A DNA stretch of 13,283 nt from a virus: UHGV virus genome UHGV-1611552; one strand, written 5' to 3'. A model generated the notes under the pieces. The model saw nothing but the letters and a program-made list of their open reading frames with translations. It ran no database searches and had not been told where the DNA came from. Position 1 is the stretch's first letter. Each line of letters starts with the position of its first letter. This document shows positions 270 through 13,283 of this stretch, piece by piece. A program made the translations under genes and the position numbers.

Positions 270-869
270 TCAGAATTTATAACCGACACCCACGATGAAA
301 CTGTTGGTACGCCAGTCACCGCTGCCGGAGCCTTCATAAGCGACGTCAACGGCCACGGATTCGGTCGGGTTAAACTGCACGCCAGCTCCCCACGCCAGAG
401 ACGTGTTGCTGTGGCGACCGTCATCACTTCCGGTCAGCACATCGTGCGTTTTCCCCTTGTTGTCAGTTACGCGGAGATAATCCCCGGAGAAAGTCGACAC
501 ACGGCTGTAAGCCACACCCGCCATCGCATACGCGCTGAACCATTCATTCACGCGTACAGACGGCCCCGCCATCACGCTGAACCAGCGGTTACGCACGGAA
601 TCTTCATGCCAGCGGGTATCGCTGTAATGGGTCAGCTGGCGATTCTTGTCTCCTGCATAGCTGAATGACGTCACCAGCCCCAGTGTGTCCGTAAACTCAT
701 AACGGTATTTCACGTTAATCCCGTTCAGATCATCACTGCCGGGAACGTTCGTCCGGGCATGAAGATACCCCGCGCTCAGCGTGGACTGATGTTCAGACGC
801 CCATGCAGGCGCACCGGATACGACCAGACAGATGGCTGCGGACAAAATGGCTGCACAAACTTTACGCAT
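270..869 (-). CDS. lom: Outer membrane protein Lom (Ail/Lom/PagC/Rck family 8-strand beta-barrel), 199 aa
   Basis: ATG at 869..867 with GAGAGG SD about 6 nt upstream; TGA at 272..270. N-terminal signal peptide MRKVCAAILSAAICLVVSGAPAWA; C-terminus ...AYEGSGSGDWRTNSFIVGVGYKF with terminal Phe typical of OM beta-barrels. Sits immediately downstream of J as in lambda. Confidence 0.9.
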   Translation of the reverse strand: MRKVCAAILSAAICLVVSGAPAWASEHQSTLSAGYLHARTNVPGSDDLNGINVKYRYEFTDTLGLVTSFSYAGDKNRQLTHYSDTRWHEDSVRNRWFSVMAGPSVRVNEWFSAYAMAGVAYSRVSTFSGDYLRVTDNKGKTHDVLTGSDDGRHSNTSLAWGAGVQFNPTESVAVDVAYEGSGSGDWRTNSFIVGVGYKF

Positions 870-936: not shown

Positions 937-3900
937 TCAGCTGATACTGATGCCTGCGGTGGCTTTCTTCATCACCACAACCAGCAAATCGCTGATACTT
1001 GCTGTGGGATACCAGTCATTTACCAGCCATGCTGACACCGAAAACTCCAGCGTCATGTGGCCGTGACCAGCTGGCATATCAATAACACCACTGTAAATCA
1101 GCGTATTATCCAGCGCGGTACGGTTATAAATTTCAGCACCATTTTTCTTCACTATCAGGCGGCATGACGAATAAATATCGTTATTCTCCCGCTCATGTTT
1201 AGCGCCGCAGAATGCCACCGCTGGAATAACAATTTGCCTGTCAAAAGGCTGATCGTCATAAATCCTGACGGTAATGGTCCCTGATGGCCACCGCTCCGGT
1301 GCCCGGGAGTCCCGCGGGAAAGCCTTACCCACTGTTTTGACAATATCGCCTTCAATCTGATTGGCTGACAGTTTCCCCTTAATCTGACAGTTCTCATTAA
1401 TCGTGACGTTGTTGAGCGTCCCGGAGTTCGCATTCACACTGCCACTGATATCCGCATTTTTAGCAGTCAGCTTTCCGTCCGGTGTCAGGGAAAATGCCGG
1501 TGGATTTCCACCGCTGGTAATGGTGGGGGCCGTCAGGCGTTTCAGGAACACGTCGTTCATGAATATCTGATCGCCCTGACCAACAAACATCGGTTTTGTG
1601 TTGCCATTCGCAGGATTAACCATCGCAATCCTGTCCGCCGCCAGCAGCACCTGACTCTGCATGCCGTCAGGGGTGTTCTCAATACCGGCACCAATACCCG
1701 CGATATAAAGGCGTCCGTCCTGCATCTGCTGCAGCTTCACAGCCCACATGCTGTTCAGGTTATTATTTGTATCAACCTGAACCTTCTGTATCTGCTGAAT
1801 TGCCGCACTCTGGTCTTCCAGTTTCTTATTGACGGTCTGCGTGATTTCATTGCTGACATCCGTAATGGACGTCCTGATTTCAGCCAGGTCAGGCGCAAGC
1901 TGACCGTTATCAATCTGCGTCCACAGCTCCTGAGCCAGATGGGTTTTCCCTATCTCGCCTTTGAAAAAATCCAGATAGCCGGATGCATCATCACTCGGCT
2001 GACCAACAGCCTCCACGAATGCCGATTTGCCAACGGTGTTCACACTGCGAACGTAAAAATAATAATCATGGCCCGGTTTGATATTGATACTGGCGGCTAT
2101 CCAGTACAGCGCCGTGCCAAGATAGCGGGCTGTGGTTTCAACCTGCCTGATATCGGTAATCCGCTTTTCCGAGAACCAGAACTCAAACTGTACCGTCGGA
2201 TCATAAACCGCAAGATGCGGCGTGGCGGTTATCTGAAAATAGCCCGGCGTCAGCTCAATCCGCGACGGCACTGCAGGTGCGGCAATCCGGAACGATACCG
2301 ATGCCGGATCGCCCTGCTGCCCCCACGCATTTACCGCCCGGACTGTCAGCCTGTAGTTCCCTGGCGCCAGTTGCGTGAAGCGGTATGTGGTTTCCGTCGT
2401 CCGGGCCGTGCTGACCAGCCGCTCACTGCCGTCATCCGCTGCCACGGTCAGGCGAAGCAGGAAGCTCACGCCCTTCACCACCTTCGGCGTGTCCCAGCGC
2501 GCCAGCACCTGATATTCCCCGCTGTCTGCGGTGACTTCGGCGGTCAGGTGCTGCACCGCTGGCGGCGTGACACCATTCACCGTGCCGCTCTGGTCGCCGT
2601 CAAAGTGCGCCCCGTTATCCACGATGGCCTCTTTTTCCGGTACATGCTGCACGGCGGTGATGGCATACGTGCCGTCGTCGTTCTCACGGATACTCACGCA
2701 GCGGAACAGGCGCTGGCGCAGCGTCGGCAGCTTCAGCCCCCATACGCTGTATTCAGCAACACCCTCAGGAACACGGCTCACTTTTACCTTCACGCCGTCG
2801 GTGACGGACTGAACCTCCACGCTGACCGGATTGCCACTTCCGTCAACCAGGCTTATCAGCGTGGTGCCGGAGGATGGCAGCGTGATTTCACGGTCGAGCG
2901 TCAGCGTCCGGGTCTGGCTGTTCACCGCCAGCACGCGCCCGCCGGTGCTGATCCCCGCATAGTCATCATCGCAGATTTCAATAACATCACCCGGCACATG
3001 GCGAAGCCCTTCGGCACCCACGCTGAAATCCACGGTCTGCGTCTCCAGCAGCTCCGTTTTAATCAGCCACAGCCCGGCGCGGTGTGCCTGCCCCCGGCTG
3101 GTACAGCCAAAGGCATCCATCTTCGTAACATTACGACCGTAACGGGCAATGGCCTGCGTATCTTCAACAAGCTCTGTCGCCGTCTCCCAGCCGTTGTTCG
3201 GGTCAATCCAGTTCACCTCAACGGCATTATGGCGGTCCTTCAGGGCGCTGAAGCTGTAGCGGAACGGCGCGCCATCATCCGGCATCACCACATTACTGCG
3301 GTTATAGGTCCACACCTTATCCGACGGTCGGTCCTGCACGAACGTCAGCGTCTGCCCGTTCCATACCGGCATACAGCGCATCGCCGAGCAGAAATCACTG
3401 AGCACATCCCACGCCTTGCGCTGTGTGGTCAGCCAGGCATTACAGGTGATGCGCGGCTCCGTGCCGCCAAAACCGTCCGGCACTGACTGGTCGCAGTACT
3501 GGCCGATGACATACAGCGCCCATTTATCCACATCCGCCGCACCAAGACGTTTCCCCATGCCGTAGCGTGGATGGGTCAGCATATCCCACAGACACCAGGC
3601 CATGTTATTGCTGTATGCTGGCTTAAACGTTCCGTCCCAGATACCGCTGTATTGCCGCGTCTGCGGGTTATAGTTCGACGGCACCTGCAGAATACGCCCG
3701 CGCAGATGATAATTACGGCTCACCTGCTGGCTGCCGAACTGCTCCGAATCCACCTGTACGCCGACCAGTGCCGTGTTCGGGTAGCACTGTTTCACATCGA
3801 TGATTTCGGTGTATGACGACCAGAGCGTTTTGTTCTGCAGCTGGTCTGTGGTGCTGTCCGGCGTCATCCTGCGCATCCGGATATTAAACGGGCGCGGCGG

Positions 3901-4476: not shown

Positions 4477-5148
4477 TCAGCGACCAATCACCACAACCTG
4501 ACCACCATCCCCTTCGTCTGCCGTGCTGATCTCCTGAGAGACCACCCGCGACCCCACGCGCATTTCACCGTACAGAACGGGCAGAACATTGCCCTGGGCA
4601 ACCATGTTATCCAGTGAGGAGAAATAGGTGTTCTGTTTGCCGTTATCTGTACTTGCTGCCGTGGGCGTCCTGGCTTTCGGTGCCAGCATCTGCGCCACAC
4701 CACCAAGTACCATACTGGCACCGAGAGAAAACAGGATACCGGTCATACCACCGGCCCCAATGGCTGCCCCCCATGCTGCAAGAGTGGCTCCGGCAGTAAA
4801 GAATGATCCGGCAATGGCGGCAGCCCCCAGAACAATCTGGAATACGCCCCCTGACTTGGCCCCGGCGACTCTGGGAACAATATGAATCACAGCGCCGTCA
4901 GGCAGAGTCTCATGTAACTGCGCCGTTAACCCGGACGTGCTGACGTCCCGCCCGGCAATCCGTACCTGATACCAGCCGTCGCTCAGTTTCTGACGAAACG
5001 CCGGGAGCTGTGTGGCCAGTGCCCGGATGGCTTCAGCCCCCGTTTTCACACGAAGGTCGATGCGGCGGCCAAATCGTTGTAAATCCCCGTAAAGGCAGAT
5101 GCGCGCCATGCCCGGTGACGCCAGAGGGAGTGTGTGCGTCGCTGCCAT
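4477..5148 (-). CDS. I: Tail assembly protein I, 223 aa (N-terminal ubiquitin-like domain, Gly/Ala-rich hydrophobic C-terminal half)
   Basis: ATG at 5148..5146, TGA at 4479..4477. Sequence MAATHTLPLASPGMARICLYGDLQRFGRRIDLRVKTG... matches lambda gpI as recalled. Overlaps the 3' end of K by 103 nt in a different frame, as in lambda. Confidence 0.9.
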   Translation of the reverse strand: MAATHTLPLASPGMARICLYGDLQRFGRRIDLRVKTGAEAIRALATQLPAFRQKLSDGWYQVRIAGRDVSTSGLTAQLHETLPDGAVIHIVPRVAGAKSGGVFQIVLGAAAIAGSFFTAGATLAAWGAAIGAGGMTGILFSLGASMVLGGVAQMLAPKARTPTAASTDNGKQNTYFSSLDNMVAQGNVLPVLYGEMRVGSRVVSQEISTADEGDGGQVVVIGR

Positions 5149-6821: not shown

Positions 6822-9379
6822 CGTCCACCTCCGGAGAACAGGCCACCATCACGCATCTGTGTCTGAATTTCATCACGGGCACCCTTGCGGGCCATGTCAT
6901 ACACTGCCTTCATCATCTGTGGACCTGGCAGACCATTCGTACCGTCGTTCTGAATCACCACGTTGTTGTTCTGCTCAAACCTGATACCCTCTGAACGCCG
7001 CATTTGCGCCGGACTTCCGGTGCCACCGACATAACCGCCGGTGGCATAGCCGCGCATCAGCCGGTAGAGATTTCCCACGCCAATCCGGCTGGTTGCCTCC
7101 TTCGTGAAGACAAATTCACCACGGTGAACAATCCCCGCTGGCTCATATTTGCCGCCGGTTCCCGTAAATCCTCCGGTTGCAAAATGGAATTTCGCCGCAG
7201 CGGCCTGAATGGCTGTACCGCCTGACGCGGATGCGCCGCCACCAACAGCCCCGCCAATAGCGCTGCCGATACTCCCGACAATCCCCACCATTGCCTGCTT
7301 AAGCAGAATTTCTGTCATCATGGACAGCACGGAACGGGTGAAGCTGCGCCAGTTCTGCTCACTGCCGGTCAGCATCGCCGCCATATTCTGTGCAATACCA
7401 TCAAAGGTCTGCGTGGCTGCACTTTTTACCTGCGACATACTGTCCGTGGCGCTCTCTTCCCACTCACTCCAGCCGGACTTCAGGCCTGCCATCCAGTTCC
7501 CGCGAAGCTGGTCTTCAGCCGCCCAGGTCTTTTTCTGCTCTGACATGACGTTATTCAGCGCCAGAGGATTATCGCCATACTGTTCCTTCAGGCGCTGTTC
7601 CATGGCTTCCCGCGCTGCCTGCCGGTCAGTCAGCCCCCGGTTTTTTGCATCAATGGCGGCCCGTTTTGCCCGTTGTTGCTGTGCGAATTTATCCGCCTGC
7701 TGTGCCAGCGCGTTCAGGTGCTCCTGATAGGTGACCTTGTCGCCAAGTACAGCCAGCTGGCGTTTGTACTCCAGCGTCTCGTCTTTATGCGCCAGCAGGG
7801 ATTTCTCCTGTGCGGACAGCTGGCGACGTTGTGCCGCCTCCTCCAGTACCGCGAACTGACTTTCTGCCTTCCACAAATCCCGGCGCTGCTGGCTGATTTT
7901 CTCATTCGCTCCGGCATGCTTCTCCAGCATCCGGAGTTCTGCCTGAAGCGTCAGCAGGACAGCATGAGCACTGTCTTCCTGACGATCGCCCGCAGACACC
8001 TTCACGCCGGACTGTTTCGGCTTTTTCAGCGTCGCTTCATAGTCCTTTTTCGCCGCCGCCATCAGCGTGTTGTAATCTGCCTGCAGGATTTTCCCGTCTT
8101 TCAGTGCCTTATTCAGTTCTTCCTGACGGGCGGTATATTTCTCCAGCGGCGTCTGCAGGCGTTCGTAAGCCTTCTGCGCCTCTTCGGTATATTTCAGCCG
8201 TGACGCTTCGGTATCGCTCTGCTGCTGCGCATTTTTGTCCTGTTGACTCTGCTGCTCAGCCTTCTTTCGGGCGGCTTCAAGCGCAAGACGGGCCTTTTCA
8301 CGATCATCCCAGTAACGCGCCCGCGCTTCATCGTTAACAAAATAATCATCCTTGCGCAGATTCCAGATATCGTCCGCTTTCTTAAACGCGGCCTCTGCCT
8401 TAATCAGCATCTCCTGCGCGGTATCAGGACGACCAATATCCAGCACCGCATCCCACATGGATTTGAATGCCCGTGCTGTCCTGTCTGCCCAGGTTTCCAG
8501 CGTGCCCATGTTCTCTTTCAGGCGGCGGGTCTGGTCATCAAACCCTTTCGTCGCGGCCTCGTTCGCCGCCTGCAATGCCCCGGCTTCATCGCCGGAACGC
8601 TGCAACTGAGCAACATACGCAATCTGCTCCGCCGTCACGTTATGGAACTGGCGTGCCATCGCCGTCAGCCCCGACGTCGGGTCTGTGGTCAGCTTCCCGA
8701 AGGCTTCAGCGACCTTGTCCACCTCCACGCCGGATGCAGAGGAGAAACGCGCCACACTCTGGCTGATGGACGCAATCTGAGCCTCACCGCTTACTCCCGC
8801 CTTAACCAGTGCGCTGAGTGACTCGCTGGTCTGGTTAAACGTCAGCCCTGCCGCCTGCCCGGCTCTGGACAGGACCAGCATACGATCTGCCGTCAGTCCC
8901 GCCTGATTGCCGGAAAGGACCAGCGTTTTGTTGAAATCGGACAGGGTTGAGTTGCCCTGATACCAGGCATACGCCAGCGCTCCGGTCGCCACCGCCAGCG
9001 AGGTGGCCCCCACCATCGGCAGGGTGATCGCACCGGCAAGCCCCCTGAACATGGGGATCATCCCGCCGAAGGAGTCCTTAACCTGACCACCCTGTTGCAG
9101 CAGGATCAGCCACGGACTTTGCCCGCCTGCAAGCTGCGTGGCCACGTCAGTGAACTGCGCAGGCAGCATACGCATGGCGGCTTTATACTGCCCGACGGAA
9201 ATCCCCGCTTTCTGTGCAGCCAGCGCCTGTCGGCTCAGCGACTGTTCAACGACTGCCGCTGTTTTTTTCGCATCACTTTCCGTACCGGAAAAATGACGCC
9301 TGACTCTGGCCATCTGCTCGTCAAATCTGGCCGCATCCAGACTCAAATCAACGACCAGATCGCCTACCGGTTCAGCCAT
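6818..9379 (-). CDS. H: Tail tape measure protein H, 853 aa
   Basis: ATG at 9379..9377, TGA at 6820..6818. 853 aa equals the lambda gpH length. Long charged, coiled-coil-like central region (...EAARKKAEQQSQQDKNAQQQSDTEASRLKYTEEAQKAYERLQ...), hydrophobic N-proximal segment and Gly-rich C-proximal segment. Start overlaps the end of G-T by 8 nt (ATGGCTGA), as in lambda. Confidence 0.95.
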   Translation of the reverse strand: MAEPVGDLVVDLSLDAARFDEQMARVRRHFSGTESDAKKTAAVVEQSLSRQALAAQKAGISVGQYKAAMRMLPAQFTDVATQLAGGQSPWLILLQQGGQVKDSFGGMIPMFRGLAGAITLPMVGATSLAVATGALAYAWYQGNSTLSDFNKTLVLSGNQAGLTADRMLVLSRAGQAAGLTFNQTSESLSALVKAGVSGEAQIASISQSVARFSSASGVEVDKVAEAFGKLTTDPTSGLTAMARQFHNVTAEQIAYVAQLQRSGDEAGALQAANEAATKGFDDQTRRLKENMGTLETWADRTARAFKSMWDAVLDIGRPDTAQEMLIKAEAAFKKADDIWNLRKDDYFVNDEARARYWDDREKARLALEAARKKAEQQSQQDKNAQQQSDTEASRLKYTEEAQKAYERLQTPLEKYTARQEELNKALKDGKILQADYNTLMAAAKKDYEATLKKPKQSGVKVSAGDRQEDSAHAVLLTLQAELRMLEKHAGANEKISQQRRDLWKAESQFAVLEEAAQRRQLSAQEKSLLAHKDETLEYKRQLAVLGDKVTYQEHLNALAQQADKFAQQQRAKRAAIDAKNRGLTDRQAAREAMEQRLKEQYGDNPLALNNVMSEQKKTWAAEDQLRGNWMAGLKSGWSEWEESATDSMSQVKSAATQTFDGIAQNMAAMLTGSEQNWRSFTRSVLSMMTEILLKQAMVGIVGSIGSAIGGAVGGGASASGGTAIQAAAAKFHFATGGFTGTGGKYEPAGIVHRGEFVFTKEATSRIGVGNLYRLMRGYATGGYVGGTGSPAQMRRSEGIRFEQNNNVVIQNDGTNGLPGPQMMKAVYDMARKGARDEIQTQMRDGGLFSGGGR

Positions 9380-10210
9380 ACCGGACTCCTCCTGCGATCC
9401 CTTCTGATACTGTCATCAGCATTACGTCATCCTCCGTCATGTCCGCCACATCCGGGGAAGTAGGGATAACTTCATTCCCGTCCGGGCCAAAGCGGACACC
9501 TCCGGCAAGCCCTGCCGCTTTCTGCATCAGCACATCATCTTCAGGCTCTTCGTCAGCCTCGCGCCGGTTCAGCAGACTGAAATCCAGCGGATGCATATCC
9601 GGATCGCTGAAAAACAGGCTGAGCACGGTGTACGTCAGCCCGGAAAAGTGCATATCCAGCAGAACATCATGAAAATAATGGGTACTGTAAAAGCGGTGCC
9701 AGTCGGCATACTCCGTGGATGACATCCCGGCAAGCATGGCACGCCAGTCGGGTCGCCCCATCTCACGCGCCAGTTTCAGGGCAAAACTCAGCTCACCGTC
9801 GAACACTTTCCCGCAGAAACAGGCTCTGCAGGCCCGGCGTCCTCTGCCTGTTCAGGTGCATCATTCACCACAAACTCATACATACCGGACAGCCGGTACA
9901 CCACGTTTTCAGCATGAGAAATTGCCTCCGTGGGCCAGGTGGTAAGCACTTCCTGCTCAATCTGTTTAACGGCTTCATTCATGGACGGCAGCTTTGTCTT
10001 CTGCGGATGGTTATGCCACAGGGACATCGCCACCAGAAACGCGCCGGTTCTGATGGCGTCTTCCACAGTAAACTTCCGGTTGCTGTCTGACTCCGCCTGT
10101 TCTGCCTGCCGTTTCATCAGGGCGAGATGCTCAATACGCTGCAGGGCTGACAGTTCAGAAAACGTGACGGTCACACCGTTATGTTCAAATGATTCGGTTT
10201 TCAGGAACAT
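9372..10210 (-). CDS. T: Tail assembly chaperone G-T fusion made by -1 programmed ribosomal frameshift
   Basis: Slippery heptamer G_GGA_AAG lies in the G frame at minus 9812..9806 (G codons 134-135, Gly-Lys). The -1 frame is open from the very next codon (GTG at 9806..9804) to TGA at 9374..9372, giving ...SAGK/VFDGELSFALKLAREMGRPDW.... Layout identical to the lambda G/GT recoding site. Confidence 0.85.
9788..10210 (-). CDS. G: Tail assembly chaperone G, 140 aa
   Basis: ATG at 10210..10208 with GGAGAG SD; TGA at 9790..9788. MFLKTESFEHNGVTVTFSELSALQRIEHLALMKRQAEQ...; length matches lambda gpG. Confidence 0.9.
   Translation of the reverse strand: MFLKTESFEHNGVTVTFSELSALQRIEHLALMKRQAEQAESDSNRKFTVEDAIRTGAFLVAMSLWHNHPQKTKLPSMNEAVKQIEQEVLTTWPTEAISHAENVVYRLSGMYEFVVNDAPEQAEDAGPAEPVSAGKCSTVS
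9806..9812 (-). promoter_or_regulatory. -1 ribosomal frameshift slippery site GGGAAAG (G to G-T)
   Basis: Plus-strand CTTTCCC at 9806..9812 is GGGAAAG on the minus strand, in X_XXY_YYZ register with the G reading frame, 7 codons before the G stop. Confidence 0.85.
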
Positions 10211-10225
10211 CGCTGACTCTCCGGA

Positions 10226-10966
10226 TTAACTGGCGGTGACGGTAATTTCTGCAACCGCAGCAAGTTCACCATTACCGGATACAACCGGAATGTTGACCTT
10301 GCCTGCAGCAACACCTTTCACGGTGATGGTCATACCACTGACCGACACGGTGGCTTTTGTTTTATCCGCAGACACCGCACGGAAGCTCTTGTCGGTTGCG
10401 CCTTCCGGCTGGAATGCCACGGTCAGCGTGGTGCTCTGCCCTTTCACCACCGAAGTGCTGGCAGGCGTCACGGTCATGCCGGTTGCCGCTGTTACCGTGC
10501 TGCGATCTTCTGCCATTGACGGACGTCCCACGTTGGTGACTTTCACCGTGCGGGTGATCACTTCCTTCGCCGTCACCGCTTTACCGATACTGCTGACCCA
10601 GCCACGGAACACATCGACCGTGCCGTTCGGGAAGCGGATTTTATAGGCACGGGTATCACCTTCATTAAACCACGCCAGCAGCGCCTGCTGCCCCTGCTCT
10701 CCGGGCATCCACGCCAGCGTGAAGCTGGTATCTCCGGCGGATTTCTGCCCCTGCCCGGTCGCAGTCCAGTCTGCATCTTCATCATCGAGATAGCTGTCGT
10801 CATAGGACTCAGCGGTCAGTTCGCCGGGCGTCAGGTCTTTAACTTTTGCCAGACGCGACCAGTCAACGTCTGAAAGCGGATTCGCATAAGGGTCACCGCT
10901 CCCCTTATAAACCCACAGGGTGGTCCCGGCACCTTTCACCGGCATTGTAGGATTTGGTACAGGCAT
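10226..10966 (-). CDS. V: Major tail tube protein V, 246 aa (C-terminal Ig-like domain)
   Basis: ATG at 10966..10964 with GAGGA SD 4 nt upstream, 7 nt after the U stop; TAA at 10228..10226. [36 protein letters not shown]... matches lambda gpV as recalled. An upstream in-frame ATG at 10996 overlaps U and is considered less likely. Confidence 0.9.
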
Positions 10967-11369: not shown

Positions 11370-11944
11370 CGCTTTATTACCATCCTCAGTTGATGCTGCA
11401 GCGCATAGCCCAGCTCTTTCGGAAGACGTTCACGCCGTATCCGCTCAATATTTTGTTTAAACGCCGTGGTCAGCGGCACCGCCATCGGGATTTTCACTAC
11501 ATCAATGGGGTAACGGTTTTTCCCGGCCACACGCTGCATAACATGCCACCGGCCGTTTTTCAGTTGCTGAATAAACGCGCCGGGAATACGACGGTTTCCC
11601 ACCACAAGCACGCTGCCGCCACCTTTCAGGGCTGAACGCTGCCCCTTTTTACGACGCCTGCGTCGGGACAGGACAACCCGCGCGTTACCCAGCCTGATTA
11701 CGGGCAAATCCCCCCGGTTAACTTTGATTCTGGCCTGCGGATTTTTGACCGTGGCCCTTTTCAGCCTGGCCCTTTCCTTTACCAGTTTCCGGCGTACCTT
11801 TGTCTCACGGGCAACCTGTGACGCCGACTGCGATATCGCGGATGAAGCAACGCGGTTAATGGCCATTGCGGCGGCACCAGGCACCGCCGTTTTGCTGATA
11901 CGGCTGAGGTTTTCAACGGCCTGCTCAAGACCTTTTATGGCCAT
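11366..11944 (-). CDS. Z: Tail completion protein Z, 192 aa
   Basis: ATG at 11944..11942, TGA at 11368..11366. Basic, Arg/Lys-rich protein MAIKGLEQAVENLSRISKTAVPGAAAMAINRVASS...; length and position match lambda gpZ. Confidence 0.9.
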   Translation of the reverse strand: MAIKGLEQAVENLSRISKTAVPGAAAMAINRVASSAISQSASQVARETKVRRKLVKERARLKRATVKNPQARIKVNRGDLPVIRLGNARVVLSRRRRRKKGQRSALKGGGSVLVVGNRRIPGAFIQQLKNGRWHVMQRVAGKNRYPIDVVKIPMAVPLTTAFKQNIERIRRERLPKELGYALQHQLRMVIKR

Positions 11945-12757: not shown

Positions 12758-13283
12758 TTACGCCAGTTGAACGGACACGAACTCATCAGGATCAGCCAGC
12801 AGCATCAGCGGTGCTGACTGAATCATGGTGAACTCTCGCGCCGGATCGCCGGATGTCTTCCAGTTTTTCGGATAACGGGGAGACGCATTAATACCCTCAC
12901 TCAATGCATCCGCATCCTGAATACAGCCATAGGTGCGCAGACCGCGTGCATGAGTGTTACCCAGCACCATCGTGTTGTCCGGCAGGAAGTTCTTTTTGAC
13001 GCCGTTTTCCACGTACTGTCCGGAATACACGACGATGGCCACATCGCCATACATTCCCTTATAAGACACCGCTTTGCCCAGGTCTTTTACCGCTGTCTCC
13101 AGTTCGGAATGAGAGCCGCGACGGGTATCCAGCTTCTCCCTGACGGCTTTGAAGGAACGGAACAGCGCCCAGCCTTTCGGGTCAAACACGATGATATTCA
13201 CCACGCCGCTGGCGTTCAGCGCGTAGGCTTCGATATCGTCGGTCGGGTCATACGTGGACTTGTCACGCTTGCTCCACTCCGTG
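12758..13283 (-). CDS. E: Major capsid protein E, C-terminal portion (N-terminus lies beyond the window end)
   Basis: Frame is open from the window edge at 13283 to TAA at 12760..12758. Hand translation of the edge gives ...TEWSKRDKSTYDPTDDIEAYALNASGVNIIVFDPKGWALFRSFKAVREKLDTRRGSHSELETAV...SVQLA, consistent with lambda gpE as recalled. The ORF-track start at 13204 is a GTG inside the gene, not the true start. Confidence 0.9.
   Translation of the reverse strand, partial: TEWSKRDKSTYDPTDDIEAYALNASGVVNIIVFDPKGWALFRSFKAVREKLDTRRGSHSELETAVKDLGKAVSYKGMYGDVAIVVYSGQYVENGVKKNFLPDNTMVLGNTHARGLRTYGCIQDADALSEGINASPRYPKNWKTSGDPAREFTMIQSAPLMLLADPDEFVSVQLA

Follow-up and report, generated by a model that had tools for sequence, protein, structure and literature searches.

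A lambda-type G / G-T programmed -1 frameshift site in the tail module of a lambdoid phage or prophage of E. coli

The G / G-T region of the DNA analysed here (13,283 nt; hereafter the window) is almost certainly an intact lambda-type programmed -1 ribosomal frameshift, carried by a lambdoid E. coli phage or prophage. The frameshift is genuine but ordinary, of a kind long described from phage lambda (Levin, Hendrix & Casjens 1993; Xu, Hendrix & Duda 2004, 2013, 2014, as cited in PMC5009743; further supporting literature in PMC7618472). The reading frames suggest that the lambda-type non-contractile tail module to which the site belongs is intact. The proper annotation is gene G plus a joined G-T CDS with -1 slippage at 9812..9806, not two independent genes G and T, which is how RefSeq/PGAP still annotates the closest E. 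coli relatives.

The G, T, H and V features of the locus are all on the minus strand (Table 1). Gene G runs from an ATG (10210..10208) to a TGA (9790..9788), with an anti-SD duplex of -6.6 kcal/mol at its start, and its product matches Pfam PF06894 Phage_TAC_2 above the gathering threshold (E=6e-59). The heptamer GGGAAAG lies at offset 398 in G and, as 398 mod 3 = 2, is read as GC[G GGA AAG], that is X_XXY_YYZ. Its GGA is codon 7 before the G stop, and five sense codons (TGT TCG ACG GTG AGC) separate the AAG from the TGA. The initial annotation had placed GGGAAAG in X_XXY_YYZ register 7 codons before the G stop and had named the register against the G frame as the point to check; the heptamer is in frame (offset 398, phase 2), as claimed. 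A G-T fusion is possible only from a -1 shift within 9851..9788, and GGGAAAG is the sole in-register heptamer in these 64 nt. The minus-strand genes of the window hold nine in-register XXXYYYZ heptamers, and of these the one at 9812..9806 alone adjoins a stop and leads into a long -1 frame; at the others, the -1 frame extends for 1-46 codons.

Table 1 Features of the G / G-T region, in window coordinates.
Feature	Position	Strand	Basis
Gene V, major tail tube protein, 246 aa from the lambda-equivalent ATG	10226..10966	-	Pfam and lambda V identity
GGAG SD-like sequence, 8 nt 5' of the G start	10219..10222	-	Sequence and anti-SD duplex
Gene G, tail assembly chaperone gpG, 140 aa, zero frame	9788..10210	-	ORF list and translation
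Complete G-T fusion coding region, 279 aa	9372..10210	-	Conceptual -1 translation
Permissive shift window, 64 nt	9788..9851	-	Upstream -1-frame stop TGA (9854..9852) to G stop
Slippery heptamer G_GGA_AAG (GGGAAAG)	9806..9812	-	Register check against gene G
T segment, -1 frame, 144 codons and TGA	9372..9806	-	Frame scan, PF06223, lambda T identity
Candidate downstream RNA structure	9728..9798	-	MFE fold, alifold
ATGGCTGA, 8-nt overlap of the T stop with the H start	9372..9379	-	Sequence
Gene H, tape measure protein, 853 aa	6818..9379	-	Pfam and lambda H identity

The -1 frame is open from the GTG at 9806..9804 to the TGA at 9374..9372. The initial annotation had read about 144 open codons right after the slip site, with no early stop in the -1 frame; the count is exactly 144, from 9806 to 9372. 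In the remaining genes of the window, stops occur in the -1 frame at a frequency of 6.2% per codon, which gives P ~1e-4 for 144 open codons by chance, indicating that the long open frame after the slip site exceeds chance. The -1-frame product matches Pfam PF06223 Phage_tail_T above the gathering threshold (E=6.4e-14), and the identical 144-aa sequence is present in public collections under the name 'phage tail assembly protein T'. Conceptual -1 translation predicts the G-T junction ...PVSAGK-VFDGELSF..., containing SAGKVFDGELSF, and thereby reproduces the junction ...SAGK-VFDGELSF... proposed in the initial annotation. The 279-aa fusion matches both Phage_TAC_2 (6e-59) and Phage_tail_T (6e-14); a PDB sequence search with it returns no match and thus no solved G or T structure. 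The T stop (9374..9372) overlaps the H start ATG (9379..9377), so that the T frame ends 8 nt into H (9379..9372), as had been noted before. The SD of H (GGAGGAG) lies within the 3' end of T and forms an anti-SD duplex of -10.3 kcal/mol.

The locus is nearly identical to its lambda counterpart. Over its 839 nt, the G-T region shares 98.6% identity with lambda J02459 9711..10549. The 12 nucleotide differences all lie outside the heptamer and the G/T overlap, the nearest being 18 nt upstream of the heptamer. G is identical to lambda gpG in 135 of 140 residues (96.4%) and T to lambda T in 143 of 144 (99.3%); the five changes in G (L17F, Q73K, M74L, N117D, and T122A) and the one in T (A116T) are all outside the slip site. 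In lambda (J02459 / NC_001416; G 9711..10133, T 10115..10549), heptamer and register are as here, and so are the five codons from slip site to G stop, the 144-codon -1 frame, the 8-nt T/H overlap, and the flanking genes V and H. The identity of 98.6%, the position between V and H, and the conservation of the slip site in distant relatives thus support the lambda-type G / G-T reading of the initial annotation. The slip site is identical to the lambda paradigm and adds no new knowledge on frameshifting or tail assembly.

The surrounding genes are arranged as in lambda, as well. G and T are two overlapping ORFs between the tail tube and tape measure genes, in the order V-G-T-H. H matches TMP_2 (7e-70) and Tape_meas_lam_C (2e-21), is equal in length to lambda H, and shares 824 of 853 residues with it; V matches Phage_TTP_12 (1.6e-70) plus Big_2 and shares 243 of 246 residues with lambda V. 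In the ORF list, V (256 aa) and FI (144 aa) begin at upstream in-frame ATGs; from the starts that correspond to those of lambda, they have 246 and 132 aa. The whole window is collinear with lambda E'-FI-FII-Z-U-V-G-T-H-M-L-K-I-J. The genes compared (FI to L, I, and J) are full length and without internal stop, and the tail proteins among them have lambda length and 96-99% identity, except J. J has 1159 aa versus 1132 in lambda, with 84% identity and a divergent C-terminus; this C-terminus and lom are mosaic replacements relative to lambda. An apparent interruption of capsid gene E is a listing artefact, the ORF at 12758..13204 being listed as closed when its frame is open to the window edge. 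A promoter and terminator scan of 9200..10400 yields nothing beyond shuffle expectation.

The initial annotation had taken the site to confirm a functional tail module. The intact ORFs are consistent with such a module, but intactness does not confirm function. The slip site might be a passive relic in a cryptic or defective prophage, intact in sequence but no longer used. E. coli chromosomes very often carry lambdoid tail modules (the G-T region has a match in 3,704 of 5,426 complete genomes, at a median of 2 places per genome with any), many prophages are defective, and clearly decayed copies are known (L011-L013 and Shigella flexneri L113). The window covers 13 kb only, and the element could be defective elsewhere. 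However, decayed copies gain indels quickly, as these contrast cases illustrate, whereas here the genes FI to L, I, and J are full length, and neither the slip site nor either of the two frames is damaged. We therefore consider a relic improbable; it is in any case compatible with the identity of the site as a G / G-T frameshift signal.

That identity is also reflected in relatives. Down to 39% protein identity, relatives have an A_AAR-containing slip site in the same place, usually 5 codons before the G stop: GGGAAAG in lambda-like loci, GGAAAAG in N15, mEp213, LLS, and many Enterobacterales, AAAAAAG in VT1-Sakai and Stx1, or GGGAAAA in Providencia rustigianii. With loci chosen by peptide patterns away from the slip site, a slip motif is found at the same position in all 90 of 90 phage/viral loci (the register upstream being broken by indels in two) and in 25 of the 26 divergent genomic loci, all but a decayed Shigella pseudogene. 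The invariance of the heptamer in 52 distinct sequences was discarded as evidence, as it is circular: these sequences had been selected by the motif. Some curated records carry the frameshift explicitly. The N15 record notes a 'slippery sequence for -1 translational frameshift', the LLS record has a joined CDS and a PRF-site feature, and the HK630 record names its product 'tail assembly protein GT'.

The same comparison bears on whether T is a separate gene with a start of its own, either GTG 9806 or an internal ATG, and the heptamer is incidental; a separate T is what most database records formally show. The first -1-frame codon after the slip site is precisely this GTG, and RefSeq lambda (NC_001416, T 10115..10549) and PGAP annotate a stand-alone CDS from it; the VT1-Sakai and mEp213 records use internal starts. 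However, the GTG lacks a usable RBS: the best anti-SD pairing before it reaches -4.3 kcal/mol and lies directly against the codon, whereas most real starts in the window have pairings of -6 to -11 kcal/mol. Relatives carry the non-start codons GCC, GCA, GTC, or GTA (Ala/Val) as the first -1 codon, yet keep the slip motif. Moreover, the annotated T start differs between records, the outcome expected if there is no real start. T is reported only as part of G-T (PMC5009743). An independent start of T is thus very unlikely. The initial annotation had called T startless; this stands in that no real start is expected, although the GTG after the slip site serves databases as a nominal start.

In lambda, G and G-T are produced by -1 PRF at ~30:1, i.e., ~3-4% frameshifting (PMC5009743; PMC3296357). 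Tail assembly depends on both proteins, which do not form part of the virion (Atkins et al. 2016, PMC5009743; Maynard et al. 2012, PMC3296357), in agreement with the initial annotation, which had described them as tail assembly chaperones absent from the virion. G binds H and T binds V (PMC5009743). The initial annotation had also given the lambda ratio as fixed. Two products do arise from one site at ~30:1, but the ratio is not strictly fixed, as it shifts with the thiolation state of U34 of the host tRNA-Lys (PMC3296357).

From lambda we infer for the present locus a slip frequency of ~3-4%, a G:G-T ratio of ~30:1, and the same chaperone roles. Most ribosomes would read G (10210..9788) through to the TGA and yield gpG of 140 aa. 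A few percent, when holding GGA in the P site and AAG in the A site (9811..9806), would move one base back, tRNA-Gly and tRNA-Lys(mnm5s2UUU) re-pairing to GGG and AAA. The slipped ribosomes would resume at the GTG (9806..9804) and read 144 codons to the TGA (9374..9372), giving the 279-aa gpG-T. By homology to lambda, the G moiety, alone and in G-T, probably coats the tape measure H, and the T moiety would recruit the tail tube protein V, upon which polymerisation would begin around H. Both chaperones would be expected to depart before tail completion. Production of G-T by transcriptional slippage, with RNA polymerase stuttering on an A run, can practically be dismissed: VT1-Sakai-type relatives have a run of six A, but the run here is only 3 nt (GGGAAAG), far below the lengths that give appreciable polymerase slippage. 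Other genes of bacteria and phages do undergo such slippage (review: PMC5009743); however, the response of the lambda G:G-T ratio to tRNA-Lys U34 modification points to the ribosome (PMC3296357).

The heptamer G_GGA_AAG ranks with the most shift-prone in E. coli, and gpG is listed as a true PRF cluster (PMC4066793). Taken alone, the heptamer causes no more than 0.28% frameshifting in a reporter assay in E. coli (PMC4066793 supplement), compared with ~3-4% reported for native lambda. Therefore, some context contribution must exist. No GGAG/GAGG/AGGA/GGGG-type tetramer that could serve as an SD-like stimulator occurs in the 25 nt upstream of the heptamer, and the gpG cluster is scored SD = N (Sharma et al. 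2014, PMC4066793).

Downstream, a candidate RNA structure consists of an outer 8-bp helix (9798..9791 / 9735..9728), separated from the heptamer by a 7-nt spacer, around an imperfect GC-rich hairpin (9772..9757 / 9752..9737). Alifold on 8 sequences suggests a structure that leaves a spacer of 7 nt and includes a single compensatory pair, and one pair of the candidate helix alternates between A-U, G-C, and C-G across relatives. In the gpG cluster, a hairpin with a 7-nt spacer is scored in 51%, with ddG 0.020 +/- 0.095 (Sharma et al. 2014 Table S8, PMC4066793). The single-sequence MFE fold downstream of the heptamer is not significant (z = -1.7; 14 of 200 shuffles fold as well). On 29 distinct sequences the pair-count test is equivocal: 87.7% of cells are paired versus 85.8% in shuffles, pairs with a double change number 4 versus 3.8, and robust covariation measures are not above shuffles; the de novo consensus fold of the 29 sequences does not recover the candidate helix. 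The helix is broken in Providencia, Sodalis, and K. spallanzanii, and an Rfam scan of the whole window at gathering thresholds matches no family. The nucleotide conservation downstream of the heptamer is largely due to the invariant T motif LAREFGRPDWRAMLAGM. We therefore keep the structure as an unproven candidate, the fold, covariation, and consensus statistics being unconvincing. That helix 9798..9791/9735..9728 acts as a clade-specific moderate stimulator, raising slippage from ~0.3% to ~3-4%, is a speculative and rather doubtful proposal; if true, the helix would supply the cis-element still missing from a model system 30 years old.

Compared with other known frameshift sites, the present one is closest to lambda. 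In N15 (genes 14/15) and phi80-like phages (mEp213 and LLS), G and T are homologous at 47-53% amino acid identity and share the gene position and the alignment column of the slip site, usually 5 codons before the stop. Their heptamer is G_GAA_AAG, in which the P-site GAA re-pairs with GGA with a second-position mismatch, and the slip is therefore closer to an A-site A_AAG tetramer event. In contrast, the slip site here is a fully canonical X_XXY_YYZ. VT1-Sakai / Stx1-converting phages have a homologous chaperone pair with position and spacing to the stop as here, but G is only ~57% identical and the heptamer is A_AAA_AAG, corresponding to cluster A_AAA_AAG_25, ECs1801, of Sharma et al. 2014 (PMC4066793). 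Outside tail genes, dnaX (tau/gamma) and IS911 / IS3 likewise use tandem -1 slippage ending in A_AAG, which is read by the shift-prone E. coli tRNA-Lys (PMC4066793; PMC6924986). Their signals depend on an SD-like element 6-17 nt upstream of the motif, on a strong hairpin or pseudoknot beginning 5-9 nt downstream, or on both, with efficiencies of 15-80%, whereas at the G-T site there is no SD-like element and no significant structure was found, which fits a low efficiency of ~3-4%. In addition, the frameshift product of dnaX is the shorter one, whereas that of G-T is the longer one.

The genes in the window lie on the minus strand, and GGGAAAG occurs once in the G-T region. It begins at offset 398 within G (398 mod 3 = 2), which makes the zero-frame reading GC[G GGA AAG] TGT TCG ACG GTG AGC TGA: a canonical X_XXY_YYZ heptamer, then five sense codons, then the G stop, with GGA the seventh codon before that stop. 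The -1 frame runs from the slip site into H, and the position of the H start codon makes it share 8 nt with the T stop. Conceptual -1 translation yields a G-T fusion of 279 aa with the junction ...PVSAGK-VFDGELSF.... The initial annotation had placed the heptamer in the G register, seven codons before the stop, with a -1 frame open for about 144 codons, ending 8 nt into H, and had given the junction as SAGK-VFDGELSF. Every element of this observation is confirmed.

Coordinates of the G-T site and of the other in-register heptamers
Feature	Position	Strand	Remark
Gene G	ATG 10210, TGA 9790..9788	-	140 aa, zero frame
Slippery heptamer GGGAAAG	9812..9806	-	X_XXY_YYZ register
T segment, -1 frame	GTG 9806..9804 to TGA 9374..9372	-	144 open codons
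Overlap of T stop and H start (ATG 9379)		-	ATGGCTGA, 8 nt
Other in-register heptamers	11648..11642, 11600..11594		gene Z
Other in-register heptamers	7646, 7076		gene H
Other in-register heptamer	6385		gene L
Other in-register heptamers	4039, 1969, 1321		gene J

Across the window's other genes, 6.2% of -1-frame codons are stops, so the probability of 144 stop-free codons is ~1e-4. Upstream of the GTG, a TGA closes the -1 frame at 15 codons. Therefore, a productive -1 shift is possible only within 64 nt (9851..9788), which contain exactly one in-register heptamer. The minus-strand genes hold nine in-register XXXYYYZ heptamers, the G site included. The other eight, inside tail genes, look like chance occurrences, since each lies far from a stop and a -1 shift there would run into a stop codon after 1-46 codons. 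The -1-frame product matches Pfam PF06223 (Phage_tail_T; E = 6.4e-14), and G matches PF06894 (Phage_TAC_2; E = 6e-59). Separately, the end of K and the start of I share ~100 nt in different frames (5046..5148), as in lambda (K 14276..14875; I 14773..15444), and long open -1 frames from codons near the K end are due to this overlap.

The comparison loci were chosen by DNA similarity or by peptide patterns without the slip site, so their slip sites can be compared without circularity. A slip motif is present at the homologous position in 90/90 phage or viral loci and in 25/26 divergent genomic loci (Escherichia albertii, Trabulsiella, Citrobacter, Enterobacter, Kluyvera, Klebsiella, Sodalis, and Providencia), with protein identities as low as 39%. 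Lambda-like phages carry G_GGA_AAG; N15 and phi80-like phages and most other Enterobacterales, G_GAA_AAG; VT1-Sakai and Stx1 phages, A_AAA_AAG; and one Providencia, G_GGA_AAA. The heptamer lies 5 codons before the zero-frame stop in most loci and 0-1 in some. All clades share the invariant A-site core A_AAR, which tRNA-Lys reads. G_GAA_AAG is used by most non-lambda relatives (loci L003, L007-L009, and L112-L136); re-pairing of P-site tRNA-Glu with GGA gives a second-position mismatch, and this heptamer has been described as unfavourable for slippage (PMC6924986). Because only A_AAR is conserved in all clades, a slip by a single tRNA-Lys (tetramer-type) is the probable mechanism in these phages.

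A scan of genome contigs also returned lambda G-T at ~99% identity in low-coverage (~1x) contigs from unrelated genera (L093-L110: Neobacillus, Oceanobacillus, Pseudomonas, Kitasatospora, Shewanella, Chromatium, Leeuwenhoekiella, Paenibacillus, Enterococcus, Pseudoxanthomonas, and others). Several of these contigs are ~48.4-48.5 kb, as long as the lambda genome. Such hits almost certainly reflect contamination of public assemblies by lambda DNA used as a control or spike-in rather than prophages.

Three IMG/VR contigs (L011, L012, and L013) and a Shigella flexneri prophage (L113, CP182557) provide a contrast, with G or T broken by indels. They contain stops in G or T, yet the GGGAAAG sequence persists; they are decayed prophages or poor assemblies. 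The window copy of G-T has no such indels. The element as a whole may be a defective prophage, only 13 kb being in view, which would leave the identity of the site unchanged. The intact tail ORFs are consistent with the functional tail module claimed in the initial annotation, but do not prove function.

Initiation of T independently of G is the formal annotation in many records, but is contradicted on three counts: the T start lacks an RBS, annotated starts differ between records, and homologs have non-start codons at the GTG position. T had been called startless; it does have a nominal GTG as its first -1 codon, but indeed no RBS. Transcriptional slippage as the source of G-T is implausible, as the A run is only 3 nt and such slippage is inconsistent with the tRNA-modification dependence in lambda (PMC3296357).

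Public annotation of T is inconsistent (NC_001416, NZ_CP073624, AP000400, and JQ182733). RefSeq lambda and PGAP start T at the GTG inside the slip site, and the VT1-Sakai and mEp213 records use internal starts (proteins of 102 and 90 aa). The frameshift is marked explicitly in only a few, curated records: N15 (misc_feature 'slippery sequence for -1 translational frameshift'), LLS (joined CDS and PRF-site feature), and HK630 ('tail assembly protein GT'). The practical value of the site lies in its correct annotation as a joined G-T CDS, with little interest beyond that.

No SD-like sequence is found within 25 nt upstream of the heptamer. On the downstream side, an MFE fold of 113 nt shows a candidate 8-bp helix (9798..9791 with 9735..9728) that begins 7 nt past the heptamer and has a GC-rich hairpin inside it; compared with shuffles, this fold has no significant advantage (z = -1.7; 14/200 shuffles as good). 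Alifold on 8 relatives reproduces the helix with one compensatory pair. Across 29 distinct sequences, 87.7% of cells pair vs 85.8% in column shuffles, double-change pairs (4) equal the shuffle mean (3.8), a de novo consensus fold does not recover the helix, and the most divergent members break it. Most nucleotide conservation in this stretch is explained by the invariant T motif LAREFGRPDWRAMLAGM encoded there. Sharma et al. (2014) came to the same view of their gpG cluster, in which 51% of members have a 54-nt hairpin at a 7-nt spacing and stability exceeds background by 0.020 +/- 0.095 kcal/mol/nt (PMC4066793, Table S8). As G_GGA_AAG gives 0.28% frameshifting bare, 3.8% with moderate IS911 stimulators, and 43% with the IS3 pseudoknot (PMC4066793), a context effect probably operates in the native site.

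The mechanism proposed here is that of lambda, and the identical cis signal supports it: when GGA occupies the P site and AAG the A site, a minority of ribosomes would slip one base 5'. New pairs would form between tRNA-Gly and GGG and between tRNA-Lys (anticodon mnm5s2UUU) and AAA, and the slipped ribosomes would continue in the -1 frame beyond the G stop. In lambda, ~96% of ribosomes keep frame (PMC3296357), hence a G:G-T ratio of ~30:1, which is crucial for tail assembly (PMC5009743; PMC7618472). G binds the tape measure protein H, both on its own and as part of G-T; the T part attaches to the tube protein V, whose polymerisation it nucleates (PMC5009743). The virion contains neither chaperone (PMC5009743), in agreement with the initial annotation. 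Its statement that both are made at a fixed ratio stands for the two products (PMC5009743) but not for 'fixed', as frameshifting increases and phage yield falls when tRNA-Lys U34 is hypomodified (PMC3296357). With these minor caveats, its interpretation is supported.

The 839-nt G-T region is 98.6% identical to lambda J02459 / NC_001416 9711..10549, where G (140 aa), T (144 aa), and the beginning of H are annotated. None of the 12 substitutions falls in the heptamer or the G/T overlap, the closest being 18 nt upstream; five change G (L17F, Q73K, M74L, N117D, and T122A) and one changes T (A116T). The region is matched in 3,704/5,426 complete E. coli genomes, and the exact T protein belongs to a public cluster of 3,114 members, 'phage tail assembly protein T'.

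Over its full length, the window follows lambda 6635..18002 collinearly, with 96.6% identity. Its genes are E' (truncated at the window edge), FI, FII, Z, U, V, G, T, H, M, L, K, I, and J, after which come a diverged lom and the beginning of stf. From FI to I, all genes but K were compared: each is exactly as long as in lambda, is free of internal stops, and encodes a protein 87-99% identical to the lambda one. Mosaic replacement is limited to the C-terminal part of J and lom, which suggests a receptor specificity other than lambda's LamB. Collinearity is lost at 937..1920 (3' part of J, minus strand) and 270..869 (lom). J has 1159 aa vs 1132 in lambda, with a C-terminal receptor-binding part ~79% identical in nucleotides or unalignable; lom has 199 aa, 45% identical. 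The window is distinct from lambda itself. At whole length it is matched best by E. coli prophages (98.6%) and by lambdoid phages such as PhiR46_1, ev099, and Chlobot (95-97%). The site is the textbook lambda G / G-T case, already known, in a close lambda relative.
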